Positions 1-6,470 of a stretch of DNA of 13,189 nt are shown in pieces. The translations under genes and the position numbers were made by a program. How positions within the stretch are numbered: the first letter of the stretch is position 1; each line of letters starts with the position of its first letter. A model generated the notes under the pieces. It was not told the DNA's origin, did no database searches, and saw nothing but the letters and a program-made list of their open reading frames with translations. Origin of the DNA: a virus. The stretch lies in IMG/VR virus record IMGVR_UViG_3300035498_001035, positions 1-13,189 of that record. One strand, written 5' to 3'.

Positions 1-1267
1 CACAACTTAATCTATCTTTCGAATAGCAATCTGCAAGTTTACTATCAAATTTTAAAACTTTCTCTTTCTTTTTCTTTTCTTTATCTCTAACAGCTTCTCT
101 AGCTTTCTTTGCGGCTTCCCTCGCTTTACGAGCATTAATCGACTTATCAAAAATTTTTTTAATTTCTTTTTCATTAATTTCAAATAATTCTTTTAATGCT
201 TTAGTAGAAAATTTTTGAACATAAGTTCTTCCTTCAGATGAGCTTAATTCTTCTTTATTTTGTCCTTTAAAAACTGGGTCAATCATTTTAAAATTAATAA
301 TTAAAAGTTGTCCTTCTTCAAAATCTGAGCCTTGAAGATTTTCATCTTTATCTTTAAGCCATTTTTTTTCTTTTGCGAATGTATTTAAAGTTGATGTAAA
401 GGCCGTTTTAAAACCAGTTAAATGAGTACCTTTATTTTGAGGAATATTATTTGTATATAATTTTACTATCGAATTATATGAATCATTATATCCAAAAGCT
501 ACTTCTACTTGAAAAGTGCCTTCATTTTCTTCAAAATAAAAAGGCGAACAAATAAAATTTTTATTTTTATTAAGATATTCAAGATAATCATAAAGTCCAT
601 TATTAGAAATATAAGAATTTTTTTCATCAAGTTCTTCATCATATAAAGTAAAAGTAAGTCCTTTACATAAAAAACTAAATTCTTGAATTTGAGTTTTTAA
701 TCTTTTTGCATCAAATTTAACCTCTTCAAGATATTTTGAATCTGGATAAAACTGTACTTGAACGCCACTTGTTTTTTTATCTTTAAAATCTTCTATAGTA
801 TGAGAAATTTTTATTCCATTTTTAAAATATATTTGTTCTATTTTCCCATCTCTAATAGATTGTACAAACATTTTACTAGAAAGTGCATTTACACATTTAG
901 CTCCAAGACCGTGCATCCCACCAGCTGAATTATATCCGCTTTGTCCTGTTGCATTAAGAAATTTACCTCCCGCATGCTCTTCTGTAAAACAAAGTTCTAA
1001 TGCAGTTTTTCCATTTTCTTTTTGCCCAATCGGAATTCCTCTTCCATTATCAGAAATTTTTAAGCTTCCATCTTTAAATAATACTAAATCAATTTTAGTG
1101 CAGCTACCATTTAAATACTCATCTATACTATTTGAAATAATTTCTTTTGCTAAATGATGAAGTCCATCTATATCTTTTGAACCTATATACATACCGGGAT
1201 ACTTTCTAACAGCTTCAAAAAAATTTAATTTTTGAATAGTATCTGTTGTATAACTATTATTTGTCAT
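1..1267 (-). CDS. gyrB: Type IIA DNA topoisomerase subunit B (GyrB / ParE / T4 gp39-like); N-terminal ATPase and transducer domains. Partial: the C-terminal Toprim part lies beyond the window start.
   Basis: ATG at 1267..1265. I translated all 422 codons by hand and found no stop. GHKL/GyrB signature motifs are present: FEAVRKYPGMYIGS, GLHHLAKEIISNSIDE, DNGRGIP, EEHAGGKF, GGMHGLGAKCVNALS, YLEYLNKNK, NNIPQNKGTHLTGF, QNKEELSSSE, and ARKAREAAKKAREAVR...KLADC (the linker into Toprim). Not in the ORF track because its stop is outside the window. Confidence 0.9.
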   Translation of the reverse strand, partial: MTNNSYTTDTIQKLNFFEAVRKYPGMYIGSKDIDGLHHLAKEIISNSIDEYLNGSCTKIDLVLFKDGSLKISDNGRGIPIGQKENGKTALELCFTEEHAGGKFLNATGQSGYNSAGGMHGLGAKCVNALSSKMFVQSIRDGKIEQIYFKNGIKISHTIEDFKDKKTSGVQVQFYPDSKYLEEVKFDAKRLKTQIQEFSFLCKGLTFTLYDEELDEKNSYISNNGLYDYLEYLNKNKNFICSPFYFEENEGTFQVEVAFGYNDSYNSIVKLYTNNIPQNKGTHLTGFKTAFTSTLNTFAKEKKWLKDKDENLQGSDFEEGQLLIINFKMIDPVFKGQNKEELSSSEGRTYVQKFSTKALKELFEINEKEIKKIFDKSINARKAREAAKKAREAVRDKEKKKKEKVLKFDSKLADCYSKDRLSC

Positions 1268-1304
1268 AATTATATTATTTTCCTTTCTTTTATATAATAT
1301 TAAA

Positions 1305-2135
1305 TTATATAATAAATTTACTTGTTTCTAATTTTAAATCTTCTATACATAAATTGTTATAATGTGTATAAGGTATTCTTATTAAAGGAATATTATTATC
1401 TTTGCACCATTGATTTTTAAATTTATCTCGTTCTTGTGTTTTTAATAATTTTTCAGTACCAGTTTCTTTTTGACTTCCAAAAGACATAGGATAAAAATGT
1501 TGTTCTCCATCATATTCAATTAAATATTTATTATCAATATAAAAATCAAATTTTGCAAAATAATTAGTATTAGGAAAAATACAAGTGTTAAAAGTTTTTT
1601 CTTTAATAAAAGATAAATTATTTTGTTTCAATAAATTTTCTATTTTTAATTCTCCCTTACTAATATTTTTATAACAATCACATGGATTATTACCTCGATT
1701 TCTTTTTAAGGAAATTAATTGGGAGGGAATTTCTTTAAATCTTTTACCACATTTTTTACATTCTATAACCCAATATATTCCACAAGCATTTTTTTCATTT
1801 GTTGGTTCTATAAATTTATAAAAAGGATTATCTATTTTTGAATAATCTTTTGAATAAGATTTTTTTCCAATTTTTTCACACATTTTTTTATGAAGCTCTT
1901 TATTATAACATCCGCAGGATTTAGTAGAGCCATTTCTAAAAGCATTTAATTTTAATAAAGTATAATTACCACATTTACATTTACAAATTATAGTAGCTCC
2001 TCTTCCCGATTTTGGAGCAGGTCCTCTATCACACACGGTGAGCATTCCATCAGGATTTGTTTCTCCGATTTTTACTGAAGACTGTCCTATTGGGATTGAT
2101 TGTACTTGAGTTCCATCTTTTAAAATATATAACAT
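1305..2135 (-). CDS. Free-standing homing-endonuclease-like protein. Two Cys-rich zinc-binding-type repeats sit N-terminal to a C-terminal DUF559/Vsr-like PD-(D/E)XK nuclease fold.
   Basis: Complete ORF of 276 aa, ATG at 2135, TAA stop, RBS GAAAGG. The N-terminal half has two similar Cys clusters (CKCKCGN...STKSCGC and ECKKCGKRF...NPCDC). The C-terminal ~80 aa (FDFYIDNKYLIEYDGEQH ... ERD ... NIPLIRIPY) fits the D...(I/V)E.DG..H ... R ... (I/V)R pattern of DUF559/Vsr-type endonuclease domains, which are common in phage homing-endonuclease genes. It sits in the intergenic slot between rnh and the topoisomerase gene. Confidence 0.5.
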   Translation of the reverse strand: MLYILKDGTQVQSIPIGQSSVKIGETNPDGMLTVCDRGPAPKSGRGATIICKCKCGNYTLLKLNAFRNGSTKSCGCYNKELHKKMCEKIGKKSYSKDYSKIDNPFYKFIEPTNEKNACGIYWVIECKKCGKRFKEIPSQLISLKRNRGNNPCDCYKNISKGELKIENLLKQNNLSFIKEKTFNTCIFPNTNYFAKFDFYIDNKYLIEYDGEQHFYPMSFGSQKETGTEKLLKTQERDKFKNQWCKDNNIPLIRIPYTHYNNLCIEDLKLETSKFII

Positions 2136-2254
2136 AATTTTATACCTTTCTTTTTTAAATATATAAAATTTAATATATTTATATTATTTAATGTTACCCA
2201 AATTTTATCTTGGGATAATATAAAATAAATATTTACAATTTTTTATTATAATTA

Positions 2255-2283
2255 ATTATATCATATTTTATAAAATTAGTCAA
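2255..2283 (-). promoter_or_regulatory. Sigma-70/SigA-type promoter candidate, TTGACT-N17-TATAAT, reading into the HEG-like ORF and gyrB-like gene.
   Basis: On the minus strand the -35 is TTGACT (2283..2278), the spacer is 17 nt and the -10 is TATAAT (2260..2255). It lies immediately downstream of the RNase H stop. AT-rich DNA produces chance matches, hence the moderate confidence. Confidence 0.35.
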
Positions 2284-2288
2284 TTTTT

Positions 2289-2777
2289 TTATATTAATCC
2301 TTGTAAAGTAGCATTATTTATAATTTTGGCAATTTTAGTTTTATTATTAGTAGCAAGTGCATCTGCAAGTTCATTTTCTAAAATTCCACAATGAGATTTA
2401 CAATGGATTACTTGACAATTAAAAAAATCTATGGTAAGATAATTATAAAGAGATTTAATTAAATCAATATTTTCTATTTGTTTCTTTTTGCTATTTATCC
2501 AATTATTCTTTGCCCATAAATATATCCATGAATTACATATATTAACACAATATGCAGAATCTGAATATATTAAACAAGTTTCATTTTTAAATCTAGTTTG
2601 TGCTAATTCAAAAGCTAAAAGAATAGCTTTTAATTCAGCTTGATTATTAGTAATAAGAGGTTCTTGAACATTTTCACAATCAATTATTTTTTGAGTTTCT
2701 TTATCTTTTATTACAATAGCATAACCACCCGGACCGGGATTACCTTTACTACTTCCATCAGTATAAATTTCTATCAT
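2289..2777 (-). CDS. rnhA: Ribonuclease HI (RNase H type 1)
   Basis: 162 aa. Motifs YTDGSSKGNPGPGGYA, TNNQAEL.A, YSDSAY, WAKNNW and HCGILENELADALA are the canonical RNase HI catalytic DEDD region and basic protrusion. ATG at 2777, TAA stop. Confidence 0.9.
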   Translation of the reverse strand: MIEIYTDGSSKGNPGPGGYAIVIKDKETQKIIDCENVQEPLITNNQAELKAILLAFELAQTRFKNETCLIYSDSAYCVNICNSWIYLWAKNNWINSKKKQIENIDLIKSLYNYLTIDFFNCQVIHCKSHCGILENELADALATNNKTKIAKIINNATLQGLI

Positions 2778-2840
2778 TTTTTTTAAACTATCCTTTCCTA
2801 TTTTATAATAATTGAGTAAGCTATTTTTTATTTCATTCTT

Positions 2841-2869
2841 ATTATAATATAATTTTTGAAGAAAATCAA
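2841..2869 (-). promoter_or_regulatory. Promoter candidate TTGATT-N17-TATAAT upstream of rnhA.
   Basis: Minus strand: -35 TTGATT (2869..2864), 17-nt spacer, -10 TATAAT (2846..2841). It sits between the endolysin terminator and the rnhA start. The same architecture recurs at 6409..6437 and 11266..11294. Confidence 0.35.
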
Positions 2870-2890
2870 ATACCTTTACTAAAAATTAGT

Positions 2891-2926
2891 TAAAATAAAT
2901 AAAAAAAATAAGTGAGTAGCAAAATG
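2891..2926 (-). terminator. Rho-independent terminator, read on the minus strand, ending the lysis-cassette transcript.
   Basis: Perfect 11-bp inverted repeat aagtgagtagc (2900-2910) / gctactcactt (2916-2926) with a 5-nt loop. On the minus-strand RNA it is followed by A-U8-AUUUAUUUUA (complement of the a8 run at 2891-2898). It starts 14 nt after the endolysin stop. Confidence 0.7.
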
Positions 2927-2939
2927 CTACTCACTTATA

Positions 2940-3713
2940 TTACACTTTCTCAGTATACTTTAAAGAAATCCAACCGGCACCTGATTTTAACTTACCCCAA
3001 CCATTATTTTCTTGAACAATAGTATAAGTACCTTTATCAGTAATTTTACCAACAATAGGATAAGTAGTCCCAGCACCACTTCTAATATTTAAAATACTTG
3101 CGGTTACCTTGACTTTATACGCGGAAGTTGAGGTAGAAGAAACTTTAGCTGGAGTTGAAGTTGCACTAACCGACACCCCGCTCAATTTATTTGTCACCTC
3201 TTGTGCTAAATTGCCCATTTTATTATACATCCAGTCGCCAGGACATGACTTTGCGGCAAACCATCTATGAACTGTTAATAACATTTCATCATCTTTTGGA
3301 GTATAATTTAATGCAGTATTTTTATTTTCAATCCAAATTAATTTAGTTTTATTATATCTTTTACAGATATCTATACATAAATTAATTAATGAATTATATA
3401 CTTTATCATTAAAAGCATAAGGGGCGGTTTTATCTGACGCACATTCTATTGTAATAGCCCTTTGGTCATTATCATTATTTGAACTACACCAAGAACGATT
3501 ATTTTCATCTACACAAAGAAGAATCCTACCATCTGTGCCTATGCCATAATTACAACTAGCTTGTCTACTTGAATTAGCAAAAGTATTTCCTAAACTTTCT
3601 ACACTTAATTGACCTACAACACAATGTGGAGTAATTCTATCAATTTTATGTGTTCTAGTTCCACTATGATTAGGGCTTAATTTTGTGTAATTAACTAAAC
3701 TACTTTTACTCAT
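2940..3713 (-). CDS. Endolysin: N-acetylmuramoyl-L-alanine amidase (Amidase_2/PGRP fold) with a C-terminal SH3b cell-wall-binding domain.
   Basis: 257 aa with a strong RBS AAGGAGA. The N-terminal domain aligns with CwlA/T7-lysozyme-type amidase_2 (ITPHCV, NYGIGTDGRI, NRSWCSS, ITIECAS, VHRWFAAKSCPGDWMY). A Ser/Thr-rich linker follows. The C-terminal stretch LNIRSGAGTTYPIVGKI...GWGKL..GWISLKY is a typical SH3_3/SH3b domain. Confidence 0.85.
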   Translation of the reverse strand: MSKSSLVNYTKLSPNHSGTRTHKIDRITPHCVVGQLSVESLGNTFANSSRQASCNYGIGTDGRILLCVDENNRSWCSSNNDNDQRAITIECASDKTAPYAFNDKVYNSLINLCIDICKRYNKTKLIWIENKNTALNYTPKDDEMLLTVHRWFAAKSCPGDWMYNKMGNLAQEVTNKLSGVSVSATSTPAKVSSTSTSAYKVKVTASILNIRSGAGTTYPIVGKITDKGTYTIVQENNGWGKLKSGAGWISLKYTEKV

Positions 3714-3728
3714 ATTAATTCTCCTTAA

Positions 3729-4073
3729 TTATTTATTTATATAATTTTGTAAATTTGAATTTTGTTCTAATATATTTTTAAATTCGTCTAAAACTTCATC
3801 TACTAAATTGCTAAAATATTCAAAAGAAATAATTTTTGAAAGATATGGAAATTTAGTTAAAAACATATTATATACATAACTAAGCTTAATTTGTCCAGTT
3901 CCTGAACCTAATTCTTTTTCTGCTATAGTTACTGCATAAAGTAACCATTCTTTTATTTTTGCAATTTGTTCTGTTTTTGGGGTTTTTATAAAAATATAAA
4001 TTTCATATCCAATTGCAGCAATAGCCGCAATAATTATAATAATTAAAACCCAATTAGAAATTAAAAATTCCAT
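3729..4073 (-). CDS. Holin, LL-H-family-like (single N-terminal TM helix).
   Basis: 114 aa. N-terminal TM helix WVLIIIIIAAIAAIGY, then YAVTIAEKELGSGTGQIKLSYVY, which resembles the conserved AE..G.G.G..K motif of Holin_LLH proteins. It lies immediately upstream of the endolysin with a 15-nt gap. RBS AAAGGAGA. Confidence 0.5.
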   Translation of the reverse strand: MEFLISNWVLIIIIIAAIAAIGYEIYIFIKTPKTEQIAKIKEWLLYAVTIAEKELGSGTGQIKLSYVYNMFLTKFPYLSKIISFEYFSNLVDEVLDEFKNILEQNSNLQNYINK

Positions 4074-4087
4074 AATATTTATCTCCT

Positions 4088-4492
4088 TTATCCTACAATA
4101 TTATCATTATTATTATTTATTTCAAATTGTTTCATTGCTATATCATATGTAATTCCATTTTTAGTATTTTCTTTAGTAGATTTTAAAGCGTAGATAGCAA
4201 AAGAAAAAATTTCTCCTATTGTAACTCCTATTAATGTAGTTAATGGAGAAAAATCAGGAGCTAAATTGGTATATTTTGCTAATTGCAAACTTTGAACAAC
4301 AGTCCAGCCAGTAAATAATTCAATAATAGTACAATTTATAAATAAAAATAAAATTAATAATTTTGTTGTAGTAATTTTTTTCTTTTTATGTAATTCTTTT
4401 TTTTCTTCATCTATTTTTTGTTGTCTTTTTATTAAATCCTTTTTAGCAGCCCACAGTTCCTCTTCTTTTTTTATTTTTTTCTCATTTAACAT
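4088..4492 (-). CDS. Lysis-cassette membrane protein of unknown function. It has a charged coiled N-terminus and two TM helices, and could be a holin partner, antiholin or other lysis regulator.
   Basis: 134 aa. Lys/Glu-rich N-terminal 40 aa, then two hydrophobic helices (LLILFLFINCTIIELFTGW and LTTLIGVTIGEIFSFAIYAL). It is the first gene after the 4586-4614 terminator and the promoter candidate. RBS GGAG. Confidence 0.45.
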   Translation of the reverse strand: MLNEKKIKKEEELWAAKKDLIKRQQKIDEEKKELHKKKKITTTKLLILFLFINCTIIELFTGWTVVQSLQLAKYTNLAPDFSPLTTLIGVTIGEIFSFAIYALKSTKENTKNGITYDIAMKQFEINNNNDNIVG

Positions 4493-4548
4493 AAATGTGA
4501 TATCTCCATTTTTTTTAAATATAAACTTTTATAAGAAATATTAAATTC

Positions 4549-4577
4549 ATTTTAGATAAATTAATCACTTTTGCCAA
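4549..4577 (-). promoter_or_regulatory. Promoter candidate TTGGCA-N17-TAAAAT for the lysis cassette.
   Basis: Minus strand: -35 TTGGCA (4577..4572), 17-nt spacer, -10 TAAAAT (4554..4549). It lies about 55 nt upstream of the ORF 4088-4492 start and just downstream of the 4586-4614 terminator. Confidence 0.3.
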
Positions 4578-4580
4578 ATA

Positions 4581-4614
4581 AAAAAAAGAAGTTAATATAA
4601 AATATTAACTTCTT
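4581..4614 (-). terminator. Rho-independent terminator read on the minus strand; possibly bidirectional.
   Basis: Perfect 13-bp inverted repeat aagaagttaatat (4586-4598) / atattaacttctt (4602-4614) with a 3-nt loop. On the minus RNA it is followed by U7 (complement of a7 at 4581-4587). The plus-strand side is also T-rich. It overlaps the TAA stop of ORF 4605-4889. Confidence 0.6.
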
Positions 4615-4889
4615 ATTTTATTAATTTTTTCTTGTAATTCTTTACTATTGCCAGTTCCGCTATGTCCAAATATCATGCCAATAACACTAATTACTCCACA
4701 TATTAAAGGAATTGAATCTGGGCTAATATTAATATGTAATAAAGCTAATCCAGCACAAAAAGTTACTCCAAAAATTTTCTTAATGAATATTCCAATTATC
4801 CAGCCTTCAGCAAAAGATAAAATAGAAATAATTATAGCACAAAGAATTATTGCAATAACCATAATTAGAAAAATAGCAAATATTTCCAT
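4605..4889 (-). CDS. Small 3-TM membrane protein, possibly a class-I-type holin or other membrane factor.
   Basis: 94 aa, three hydrophobic helices and a charged C-terminal tail (NSKELQEKINKIRS). RBS AAAGGAG. It is followed directly by the terminator. The plus-strand ORF 4648-4917 is its shadow. Confidence 0.45.
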   Translation of the reverse strand: MEIFAIFLIMVIAIILCAIIISILSFAEGWIIGIFIKKIFGVTFCAGLALLHINISPDSIPLICGVISVIGMIFGHSGTGNSKELQEKINKIRS

Positions 4890-4894
4890 TTATT

Positions 4895-5428
4895 TTAATA
4901 AGCTCCTTTCTTATTGATATCTTCAATAATAGTATTTAAATTAACAGGATAGCAATTGTGGGCATCCATATTTACATTATAAGTATGTGGCACGTCGCTC
5001 CATTTATTTTGACTATGAGTATGTCCATGCAGGCTATAAATAAATTTCTTTTCACCCATATTTGCAACTAATTGCGGATAATGACTTAAAACAAAAGTTT
5101 TTTTACCTACTTTAATACGATATCCCATTTGAACATCTTTAATGTTTTTAATAGTTTTGAATAACTTCTCGCGGGTATCCGTATCATGGTTCCCTAGAGC
5201 TAAAATAATATTCCCATTAAGTTGGCTTAATAATTTTAAACCTTCTTCATTATTGCCTAGCATAACATCTCCAAGATGATACACAATATCATTATATCCT
5301 ACAACAGAGTTCCATCTTTCAATAATTGTTTCATTCATTTCTTCAATACTATTAAAACCACGTGGCTTCCAGATAAAATCCTTATTATGCGCCAAATGAG
5401 TGTCACTAGTAAGCCAAATTTCTGACAT
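4895..5428 (-). CDS. Calcineurin-like metallophosphoesterase; likely the phosphatase partner of the adjacent polynucleotide kinase.
   Basis: 177 aa. The motifs SDTHLAH (D-x-H), GDV, GNHD and HGHTH are the metal-binding motifs of the binuclear metallophosphoesterase fold. Perfect RBS AAGGAGGA. Its start is 19 nt downstream of the pnk stop. Confidence 0.8.
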   Translation of the reverse strand: MSEIWLTSDTHLAHNKDFIWKPRGFNSIEEMNETIIERWNSVVGYNDIVYHLGDVMLGNNEEGLKLLSQLNGNIILALGNHDTDTREKLFKTIKNIKDVQMGYRIKVGKKTFVLSHYPQLVANMGEKKFIYSLHGHTHSQNKWSDVPHTYNVNMDAHNCYPVNLNTIIEDINKKGAY

Positions 5429-5446
5429 TTTTATTCCTCCTTATAA

Positions 5447-5968
5447 TTAATTAATATAAATTTCATCTTTAATAATATTAGCGTTTATACGACATTGAAT
5501 AGGTTTATTATCTTCAATTATATAAATTTTGTTAAATCCTTCATCAAAATCTGGTGCTTCAATATTACCATACATGCGGCGAAGCTGGTTTTCAGGAACA
5601 TATGACCGAGTTCCCGCGCGATTTGCATTTCTATTGATGCACTCTTCTAATGGAGTTTTTATCCATATAACTTCAATTGAACTAGGCTTGACTGTAATAT
5701 TTCTTAATAACTTATTTCTTGAACTTCTATTTAAATGAGTTGCATCTGCAAAAACATTATATCCAGCTTTTAAATTCTCATTAATTTGTCTTATATATTC
5801 TGCATATACTTGCTTTTCTTTTGAAAAATACTCTTCATCTTCTGACACCATAGAAAATCTAATTTCGTCACGAGAAATATATTTGTCAGTTTCAATATTC
5901 ATATGATTTCGAGTCCATGTACTCTTACCAGCACCTGGACATCCCATTAACATATATAAATTACTCAT
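5447..5968 (-). CDS. Polynucleotide 5'-kinase, T4 Pnk kinase-domain homolog (P-loop; kinase domain only, no fused HAD phosphatase).
   Basis: 173 aa. Motifs align with the T4 Pnk N-terminal kinase: GCPGAGKSTWTRNH (Walker A, GCPGSGKSTWAREF in T4), ISRDEIRFS (INRDDYRQS), FADATHLNRSSR (ISDTNLNPERR), RNANRAGTRSYVPENQLRRMY (RNSKRGTKAVPIDVLRSMY). Confidence 0.85.
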   Translation of the reverse strand: MSNLYMLMGCPGAGKSTWTRNHMNIETDKYISRDEIRFSMVSEDEEYFSKEKQVYAEYIRQINENLKAGYNVFADATHLNRSSRNKLLRNITVKPSSIEVIWIKTPLEECINRNANRAGTRSYVPENQLRRMYGNIEAPDFDEGFNKIYIIEDNKPIQCRINANIIKDEIYIN

Positions 5969-5969
5969 A

Positions 5970-6371
5970 TTACCAACCTCTATTCAATAAATTTTTTGTT
6001 TCATCATTAGGATTGTCTTTTAAGATTCGATGCCCGCATGAATAATCACCTTTTGAGTTCCAACATTTACCAGACCTATTGTATTTACAATCTGTCTTTG
6101 AACAACTTAATAATTCTGCTACAGGAACTTTTTCTCCATTTACAAATCTACCTAAACGGAACTCTTCTTGAAAATCTTCTAATCTATATGCCCCGAAAGG
6201 ACGAATTTCTGCGTGATTGGTCGTTTTTTGGCATTCCAAGCAAAACATTTTTTTCAAATGCCCAGCTTCTCTTTGTTTACCAACTTGTCGAGGTACCATT
6301 ACCCCTTCTTTTCCACACTCAGTACAAAACATTCTACTAATTGTAAAACCATTATTGTTCTTTTTCCCCAT
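5970..6371 (-). CDS. Cys-rich zinc-ribbon protein of unknown function.
   Basis: 133 aa. N-terminal CxxC...(~20 aa)...CxxC ribbon (FCTECGKEG...HLKKMFCLECQKTTNH) with a loose resemblance to bL33-type ribbons. The C-terminus has a second Cys/His cluster (CSKTDCKYNRSGKCWNSKGDYSCGH). ATG at 6371, RBS GAAGGT. Its stop lies 2 nt upstream of the pnk start. Confidence 0.5.
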   Translation of the reverse strand: MGKKNNNGFTISRMFCTECGKEGVMVPRQVGKQREAGHLKKMFCLECQKTTNHAEIRPFGAYRLEDFQEEFRLGRFVNGEKVPVAELLSCSKTDCKYNRSGKCWNSKGDYSCGHRILKDNPNDETKNLLNRGW

Positions 6372-6408
6372 TTATTATCATACCTTCTTTTTCTTATTTT
6401 ATAAATAT

Positions 6409-6437
6409 ATTATATAATATTTTTTTAATAAAATCAA
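6409..6437 (-). promoter_or_regulatory. Promoter candidate TTGATT-N17-TATAAT upstream of the Cys-rich/pnk/phosphoesterase block.
   Basis: Minus strand: -35 TTGATT (6437..6432), 17-nt spacer, -10 TATAAT (6414..6409). It is about 38 nt upstream of the ORF 5970-6371 ATG and partly overlaps the foot of the MVP terminator hairpin. Confidence 0.35.
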
Positions 6438-6470
6438 AAAGAATGATATTTCTATCATTCTTTTATCATT
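6437..6470 (-). terminator. Intrinsic terminator candidate immediately after the MVP-homolog stop.
   Basis: Perfect 12-bp inverted repeat aaaagaatgata (6437-6448) / tatcattctttt (6453-6464) with a 4-nt loop. On the minus RNA the stem ends in UUUU and is followed by UGAUUUUAUU. AT-rich stem, so moderate confidence. Confidence 0.5.

Follow-up and report, generated by a model that had tools for sequence, protein, structure and literature searches.

The operon at 6371-4895 (minus strand) of a 13,189-nucleotide (nt) stretch of viral DNA (IMG/VR record IMGVR_UViG_3300035498_001035, positions 1 to 13,189 of that record; hereafter the window) encodes a small zinc-ribbon protein, a stand-alone kinase of the T4 Pnk type and a binuclear metallophosphoesterase (MPE). 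We propose that these three genes serve a large, low-GC phage as a module for healing RNA ends, a reading to which we assign a probability of about 0.62. The proposal draws on observed homologies, conserved catalytic residues, gene order and linkage to RNA ligases in relatives. The three open reading frames (ORFs), already described in an earlier note on this DNA that was made from the letters and their translations, are all present on the minus strand, their family matches have E-values far beyond chance, and their order recurs in dozens of diverged contigs. In the direction of transcription they are:

5970..6371, minus strand: zinc-ribbon protein, Cys-rich, 133 amino acids (aa); PHROG 1257, E 2e-13
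5447..5968, minus strand: stand-alone polynucleotide 5'-kinase-like P-loop kinase, 173 aa; Pfam, PHROG, BLASTP and fold
4895..5428, minus strand: binuclear MPE of the aq_1665 / PHROG 547 family, 177 aa; Pfam, PHROG, motifs and fold

The kinase, its phosphoesterase partner and the zinc ribbon

The kinase matches Pfam AAA_33 (E 2.7e-23, 83 bits), PHROG 505 'polynucleotide kinase' (E 5.7e-25) and, over positions 10-162, NCBIfam bacter_Pnkp (E 3e-12), and it is 30% identical to T4 Pnk over 145 aa (BLASTP, E 8e-11). Its residues K15, S16, D34, R37 and R117 align with K15, S16, D35, R38 and R126 of T4 Pnk, which we take to be the essential residues of that enzyme. Across a 49-sequence family alignment K15, D34, R37 and R117 never vary, and S16 is kept in at least 90% of the sequences. 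A PDB sequence search returned PSTK, the kinase domain of Clostridium thermocellum Pnkp (CthPnkp), T4 Pnk, Pnkp1 and little else. The AF2 model (pLDDT 92) has the CthPnkp kinase 4jt2 as its top Foldseek match (E 3e-8, TM 0.73), and further fold matches are PSTK, mammalian PNKP, T4 Pnk, Pnkp1 and two fungal (Mucorales) kinase structures. By sequence and modelled fold the protein is assigned to the polynucleotide-kinase clade.

The earlier note had held that this T4-like kinase lacks the fused HAD 3'-phosphatase, and this is borne out: the 173-aa protein stops where the HAD domain of T4 Pnk would start, and it gave no HAD_PNKP or PNK3P match in Pfam, whereas T4 Pnk matches HAD_PNKP with E 2.8e-59. 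The stand-alone form is the family norm, since, out of more than 750 homologues, all 120 among the matches listed are 155-180 aa long. An objection raised with the original claim, that the ORF might be a generic AAA_33 or zeta-toxin-type kinase, falls in its first part because Pfam puts the T4 Pnk kinase domain under AAA_33 alone and at an equal score (82 bits vs 83 bits for the window kinase). The zeta toxin was rejected at 16.8 bits for Zeta_toxin, against a gathering cutoff of 22.3. Two other assignments were also rejected, namely the PSTK equivalog (TIGR03574, 55.9 bits vs a 290.5-bit cutoff; 173 aa vs a 249-position model, without the C-terminal tRNA-binding domain) and the 5-hydroxymethyl-dU DNA kinase (HMUDK_HMUD1, 17.2 bits vs a cutoff of 27, E 0.004, residues 90-123 only).

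The adjacent MPE matches Pfam Metallophos (E 9e-8) and PHROG 547 (E 6e-50). The signature motifs listed in the earlier note (D9-x-H11, G53-D54, G79-N80-H81-D82 and G135-H136-x-H138) are all there and, together with H116, are invariant across 50 homologues. D9, H11, D54, N80, H81, H116, H136 and H138 are the metal-ligand residues of the binuclear MPE superfamily, and the AF2 model (pLDDT 94) confirms the calcineurin-like fold. Similarity to aq_1665 of Aquifex aeolicus (PDB 1xm7) and to PHROG 547 is full-length in both sequence and fold; the next matches are far weaker (LpxH 11.1, YfcE 10.7, lambda phosphatase 10.2, CthPnkp phosphatase 8.5). A PPP-type protein Ser/Thr phosphatase (lambda PPase / NinI), whose signature the earlier note had named as a ground for doubt, was checked for and rejected: the MPE has GNHD and is without GDxHG and GDxVDRG. 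The lambda-phosphatase type of bacterial Pnkp was likewise ruled out for this gene, its family being aq_1665. We regard the MPE as a candidate 2',3'-cyclic phosphodiesterase / 3'-phosphatase.

In the zinc-ribbon protein, the N-terminal ~70 aa carry a CxxC...CxxC pattern with conserved GHLKK and NHxE, and a C-terminal Cys cluster is found in a subset of relatives only. It had no Pfam match and returned nothing in the PDB sequence search. The family has 276 representatives among 1.84 billion proteins, nearly all of them stand-alone and 65-145 aa long. Four representatives (P0328, P0333, P0381 and P0355; 229-246 aa) are putative fusions of the zinc ribbon with an AAA_33 kinase; therefore a physical partnership with the kinase is indicated, and the zinc ribbon is probably an accessory or substrate-binding partner of the kinase. 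The three genes are co-oriented and tightly spaced. The zinc-ribbon stop codon lies 1 nt ahead of the kinase ATG, which together with the fusions agrees with the co-transcribed Cys-rich protein described in the first account, and the kinase-MPE spacer, counted there as 19 nt, is 18 nt long (5429-5446) and contains a strong AAGGAGG ribosome-binding site.

Gene order and RNA ligases in relatives

With the kinase profile, 80 IMG/VR loci were recovered, with kinase identities of 38-99%; most of them belong to one phage clade, and the counts given here are not independent events. Of the 77 loci with enough sequence, 73 have a PHROG 547-type MPE no more than 1.5 kb downstream of the kinase and on its strand, at a median gap of about 1 nt, which upholds the view of the MPE as a conserved operon partner of the kinase. 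At least 55 of 75 loci have the zinc-ribbon gene immediately before the kinase, and the order zinc ribbon-kinase-MPE is nearly invariant. In several relatives an MPE resembling NinI (lambda phosphatase) stands directly upstream of the zinc ribbon-kinase pair. A PIN-PhoH gene follows the MPE in many relatives (detected in 29/79 loci; e.g. L002 10117-11352) and is absent between the MPE and the holin genes in the window lineage (4605-4889 to 3729-4073, minus strand, compared with L002).

The ligase linkage is the key evidence on function. In a fully syntenic lineage with a kinase 61% identical to that of the window (132-139-kb contigs), the genes run NinI-like MPE, vault-like gene, RNA ligase of 403-416 aa, HPr-like gene, zinc ribbon, kinase, MPE, PIN-PhoH, endolysin, RNase H and gyrase. 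The ligase of this lineage carries Pfam PF09414 and PF21189, and among solved structures its best match is the Rnl5 ligase of Naegleria (NgrRnl; E 9e-20). In the wider clade the typical operon consists of an Rnl5-type ligase, a small HPr-like protein, the zinc ribbon, the kinase, the MPE and PIN-PhoH (e.g. L264 7849-9495; L019 7670-9214). When the 80 loci were scanned with an Rnl5-type query, 41 of the 58 evaluable loci had such a ligase on the strand of the module and at most 4 kb upstream, and 4 more had a ligase elsewhere in the locus. The Rnl5-type ligase family has at least 527 relatives in IMG/VR. Nick sealing by DraRnl, another Rnl5 ligase, needs RNA only on the 3'-OH side, and the physiological role of Rnl5 ligases has been called uncharted (PMC5397189).

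In other relatives the ligase is of the Rnl1 type. L255 and the L180-L190 clade have it upstream of the module, and in the L180-L190 clade a second PHROG 547 MPE precedes the Rnl1 ligase. In L255, a full-length sigma-70 family factor (2615-3652, plus strand) and an HNH gene are located between the NinI-like MPE and the Rnl1 ligase. The loci L119 and L135 hold MPE-kinase-Rnl1 cassettes in which the MPE is of PHROG 547 and the kinase of a different family, PHROG 2071, and in Aeromonas phage PAc the order is PHROG 547 MPE, Rnl1 and a 131-aa AAA_33 kinase. The RNA end-healing role is well supported by this context, because both Rnl5 and Rnl1 ligases adjoin the module in relatives. Beside ligases, Pnk-like kinases are also paired with HAD (T4) or HD domains (Bacillus phage Nate and many metagenomic loci), and an MPE as kinase partner occurs in PHROG 8238 / Pnkp-like proteins as well. 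Since HAD, HD and MPE all pair with Pnk-like kinases, the phosphoesterase partner is modular and the aq_1665-type MPE is one option. As for the Rnl1 searches, the L064 Rnl1 as a single query returned only itself, an 11-sequence Rnl1 alignment was too diverged to serve as a search query, and an apparent pair of the Rnl1 P0435 with the kinase P0015 was rejected, the two being on separate contigs (each 23,431 bp).

Neighbouring genes and the setting of the window

Upstream of the zinc ribbon, the window encodes a vault-protein-like gene, a Thg1-like gene, a YqeY gene and a Pol-beta-type nucleotidyltransferase (NTase) gene, and 7 kb upstream of the kinase-MPE pair lies the second phosphoesterase of this island. 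These neighbours, with a possible promoter, are:

12527..13189, minus strand: NinI / lambda-phosphatase-like MPE, cut by the window end, 240 aa in relatives; PHROG 246, E 3e-32
11321..12370, minus strand: Pol-beta-type NTase with a C-terminal CodY-like helix-turn-helix, 349 aa; family searches
10533..10997, minus strand: YqeY/GatB-like protein, 154 aa; Pfam YqeY, E 1.4e-11
9072..9902, minus strand: Thg1-like protein of the bacterial Thg1-like protein (TLP) type, 276 aa; Pfam Thg1, E 2e-32
6409..6437, minus strand: possible sigma-70-like promoter TTGATT-17-TATAAT upstream of the zinc-ribbon gene, a consensus match only, unenriched vs shuffled sequence

The NinI-like MPE has weak PDB matches to the CthPnkp phosphatase 4j6o and to ApaH, and is a homologue of the phosphatase domain of bacterial Pnkp. 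PHROG 8238 (737 positions, labelled 'RNA ligase') appears to be a Pnkp-like kinase-MPE-ligase protein; the window kinase matches its positions 1-151 and the NinI-like protein positions 175-306, and therefore the first two Pnkp modules are encoded in the window as separate genes, besides the aq_1665-type MPE. The Pnkp-type MPE is thus not the gene next to the kinase, as had been supposed, but the separate gene at 12527-13189, which had gone unnoticed.

Homologues of the NTase adjoin Rnl1 ligases in other phages and have a weak Pfam RlaP match; we count the NTase as a putative member of the RNA-repair island. The best PDB match of the Thg1-like protein is the Bacillus thuringiensis TLP 4kgk (E 1e-53), and the protein is predicted to be a 3'-5' nucleotidyltransferase acting on 5'-phosphorylated RNA. 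The YqeY-Thg1 order is kept in relatives and stands beside Rnl1 in L224; members of the Thg1, YqeY and NTase families have Rnl1 ligases as neighbours in other phages (L224, L235 and L213-L219). Thg1 is present in about 12 of 79 related loci. Several relatives have both Thg1 and the Rnl5 ligase, so that the two are complementary and not strict alternatives.

The window looks like a piece of a large phage genome. It is AT-rich (GC 21-37% across the window), every substantial ORF is on the minus strand, and it codes for RNase H, an HNH endonuclease, holin-like proteins and an endolysin of the Amidase_2/SH3 type. Over 11 kb it shares 98.5% identity with the IMG/VR contig IMGVR_UViG_3300035501_000484 (139,648 bp; L016), it is 99.94% identical to a 9.5-kb JGI contig, and megablast against 50,697 phage records gave no DNA-level match for the whole window among deposited phages. 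A terminator scan of the window found none, and promoter-like sites in the window were not enriched over shuffled sequence; an AT-rich hairpin with a T-run at ~6440-6466 precedes the possible promoter listed above.

Other observations concern genes outside the module. A segment of about 2 kb at 177-2241, between RNase H and the gyrB start, carries an HNH/homing-endonuclease-like ORF (1305-2135, minus strand; PHROG 559, E 5e-32) and looks like a mobile insertion because it is missing from the otherwise 98.5%-identical L016. The vault gene at 6471-8992 (minus strand) is a homologue of the eukaryotic major vault protein (MVP) (Pfam MVP_shoulder, E 1.5e-22, and Vault_3). Compared with L010, in which the protein is intact at 840 aa, an A-run near 8262-8266 has lost 1 nt (GGGGAAAAG to GGGGAAAG), which breaks the gene into ORFs of 251 aa and 524 aa; the same split is found in the near-identical JGI contig L012. 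MVP-like genes occur in about 30 related loci, and in L247 one adjoins two RNA ligases and a kinase-HD gene. In L179, about 3-9 kb upstream of the island, there are a reverse transcriptase (2458-3699, plus strand; RVT_1, E 2.6e-10) and a 1570-aa DUF6273 protein (4361-9073, minus strand), which may be a diversity-generating retroelement and its target.

Proposed function, rival explanations and known systems

Metal-independent RNases, such as host anticodon nucleases and toxins, would leave 5'-OH ends together with 2',3'-cyclic-phosphate or 3'-phosphate ends, and these are the ends that we infer as substrates of the module. The kinase would move the gamma-phosphate of a nucleoside triphosphate onto the 5'-OH; by homology, K15 and S16 would belong to the P-loop, D34 would serve as the general base, and R37, R117 and R121 would contact phosphates. 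The binuclear MPE would strip the cyclic or 3'-phosphate to give a 3'-OH. Labour may be split between the two phosphoesterases, with the NinI-like MPE 7 kb upstream sharing in the clearing of 3' ends, and the zinc ribbon would assist the kinase as an accessory subunit or by binding the substrate. In most relatives, a nick-sealing ligase of the Rnl5 type, encoded just upstream, presumably joins the resulting 5'-phosphate and 3'-OH ends. In the window lineage, the fate of the healed ends may differ: the Thg1-like 3'-5' polymerase nearby, which requires a 5'-phosphate, and the NTase could act on them, or they could be sealed by a ligase from the host or from another part of the phage genome.

Several points weigh against RNA end healing. 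The search for a ligase, which the earlier note had suggested, succeeded in relatives, but in the window lineage no RNA ligase or remnant of one was found in the window or in ~36 kb of its closest relatives, out of a genome of ~140 kb (family scans and tblastn); the ~6.6 kb of further upstream sequence from L179 held no ligase. As a weak negative, no window-lineage contig was among the best 80 loci of the Rnl1- or Rnl5-anchored scans (for Rnl5, of the best 600 candidates). A tRNA scan of the window found no tRNA gene. The other flank of the module consists of DNA-replication genes, namely RNase H, gyrase B/A and a 369-aa ATP-dependent DNA ligase, and Rnl5 ligases themselves have been tied to DNA repair, DraRnl aiding genome reassembly after irradiation (PMC5397189). 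The closest characterised relatives of the MPE (MJ0936, YfcE, LpxH and SapH) are not RNA-end enzymes. PHROG 547 MPEs are present in about 1,700 phage records vs about 550 with a detectable Pnk-like kinase, and the MPE occurs alone in Staphylococcus and Bacillus Herelleviridae, the Bacillus copy lying among replication genes; because of these record counts and lone copies, the family is not confined to RNA repair. The concentration of the related loci in one clade belongs here as well.

Among the other readings, we hold as a tentative possibility, with little weight, that in the window lineage the healing module feeds a ligase-independent rebuilding of tRNA ends. Here the kinase would give the 5'-phosphate, and the Thg1-like enzyme would activate this end and refill 5' nucleotides in the 3'-5' direction, with the opposite strand of the acceptor stem as template. 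The MPE, alone or with the NinI-like MPE, would clear 3'-phosphates for the RlaP-like NTase or a host CCA-adding enzyme, and the zinc ribbon may direct the enzymes to tRNA. Operons of Thg1 with PNK have been described, in which PNK would supply the 5'-phosphate for Thg1 (Anantharaman, Iyer and Aravind, 2010; PMC2904730). If true, such a pathway would mend acceptor-stem or end-trimming damage that is beyond the reach of ligases, and it would be the long-sought physiological role of bacterial-type Thg1-like proteins.

The kinase and MPE might also clean 5'-OH/3'-phosphate termini in phage DNA, or in ribonucleotide-containing nicks, during replication or repair, after which the ATP-dependent DNA ligase of the phage, or Rnl5 in relatives, would join them; such a module would resemble mammalian PNKP. 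The position of the module between RNase H, gyrase B/A and the DNA ligase fits this processing of DNA or RNA-DNA hybrid nicks, as do the presence of the DNA-repair kinase mammalian PNKP among the top fold matches and the part of DraRnl in genome reassembly (PMC5397189). We nevertheless consider it unlikely, as the island is mostly RNA- or tRNA-related (Thg1-like, YqeY, RlaP-like NTase, and PIN-PhoH in relatives) and the module is linked also to Rnl1-type ligases, which in T4 act on tRNA-like breaks.

Another explanation uncouples the MPE from the kinase: it would hydrolyse cyclic (oligo)nucleotide immune signals, 2',3'-cyclic nucleoside monophosphates or Ap4A, and the adjacency of the two genes would reflect a shared early-gene block. 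The nearest characterised structures, those of generic phosphodiesterases and an Ap4A hydrolase (MJ0936, YfcE, SapH), agree with it, and so does the wide spread of the family in phages without a Pnk-like kinase. Yet start and stop codons overlap or nearly touch, at the median gap given above, down to about 40% kinase identity; the family recurs independently beside Rnl1 with a different kinase family; and eight island proteins matched no PADLOC or anti-defence family. Taken with these points, the uncoupled role is distinctly unlikely.

Healing could instead serve decay, if 5'-monophosphate and 3'-OH ends let host 5'-3' (RNase J-type) and 3'-5' exonucleases digest the RNA and recycle its nucleotides for phage replication. 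The end requirements of these exonucleases are well established, no ligase lies in the ~36 kb of the window lineage, and the PIN-PhoH protein that adjoins the MPE in relatives is a predicted RNase/ATPase. However, PIN nucleases normally leave 5'-phosphate and 3'-OH ends already, the ligase is immediately upstream of the module in most relatives, and the Thg1-like and NTase neighbours suggest rebuilding rather than degradation, which makes decay highly unlikely in our view. Finally, although PSTK gives the best NCBIfam and PDB sequence scores and HMUDK_HMUD1 is weakly matched in Pfam and is the label of the homologue P0110, a kinase substrate other than the polynucleotide 5' end (PSTK/KTI12-like action on a tRNA-bound moiety, or 5-hydroxymethyl-dU DNA in hypermodification) is most improbable, given the missing PSTK C-terminal tRNA-binding domain (173 vs ~250 aa), the scores below cutoff for both families, the absence of hypermodification genes nearby and a ligase linkage that fits 5'-phosphorylation.

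RNA end healing, the reading that we prefer, would bring a testable function to two families without an assigned role, the aq_1665 / PHROG 547 MPEs (~1,700 sequenced phages) and the phage-restricted zinc ribbon. It would make the partner of the Pnk-type kinase interchangeable among HAD, HD, lambda-type MPE and aq_1665-type MPE, and it would give the nick-sealing Rnl5 ligase of the wider clade a clear place in a heal-and-seal operon. With Thg1 but no ligase nearby, the window version of the operon would serve as a natural experiment on the fate of healed ends. In practical terms, the proteins are candidate new end-healing enzymes and candidate markers of phage counter-defence against RNA-cleaving immunity.

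Among known systems, T4 Pnkp (pseT) with Rnl1 has a homologous kinase domain that shares P-loop, general-base Asp and Arg residues with the window kinase, and is likewise a countermeasure-type phage enzyme; some relatives of the module also have an adjacent Rnl1 ligase. It differs in that the module has no fused HAD (DxDxT) 3'-phosphatase, a separate binuclear MPE gene and an extra zinc ribbon, and that no Rnl1 was found in the ~36 kb of the window lineage. Bacterial Pnkp (C. thermocellum; Pnkp-Hen1) gives the best structure match of the kinase and also heals ends with a kinase and a binuclear MPE, and the window encodes a lambda-phosphatase-like (NinI-like) MPE too. Here, in contrast, no lambda-type MPE is fused to the kinase, the NinI-like MPE being a separate gene, and the main window ORFs (several small ORFs left out) gave no family match to the Pnkp ligase module or the Hen1 methyltransferase. 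The resemblance to Pnkp/Hen1 systems put forward in the earlier note therefore stands for the kinase and MPE healing pair and for the fold of the kinase, but not for the adjacent MPE, which is not of the lambda type, nor for Hen1.

Runella HD-Pnk is a kinase-HD end-healing enzyme, and Bacillus phage Nate gp173 is of this type. It shares with the module a Pnk-like kinase, a non-HAD metal-dependent phosphoesterase and a ligase-linked operon, but there the kinase is fused to an HD domain as phosphoesterase, whereas here the phosphoesterase is a separate MPE. The ligase directly upstream of the module in most relatives belongs to the family of the Rnl5 ligases DraRnl and NgrRnl, though none was found in the window or its closest relatives. 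As in the operons of Thg1-like proteins with PNK (PMC2904730), the window links a kinase of the Pnk family with a Thg1-like 3'-5' polymerase; unlike there, the constant partners of the kinase are the MPE and the zinc ribbon, and in the window a vault-protein-like gene separates Thg1 from the kinase. For aq_1665 (PDB 1xm7) / PHROG 547, the link of the window MPE to RNA repair comes from gene context. Some jumbo-phage RNA-repair systems use calcineurin-like or HD phosphatases (PMC7824862). By analogy, the module would work like T4 Pnkp/Rnl1 and bacterial Pnkp while being a member of neither architecture. Modular phage RNA-repair cassettes are already established; the novelty lies in the split into separate genes, in an MPE of the aq_1665 type and in a dedicated zinc-ribbon protein.

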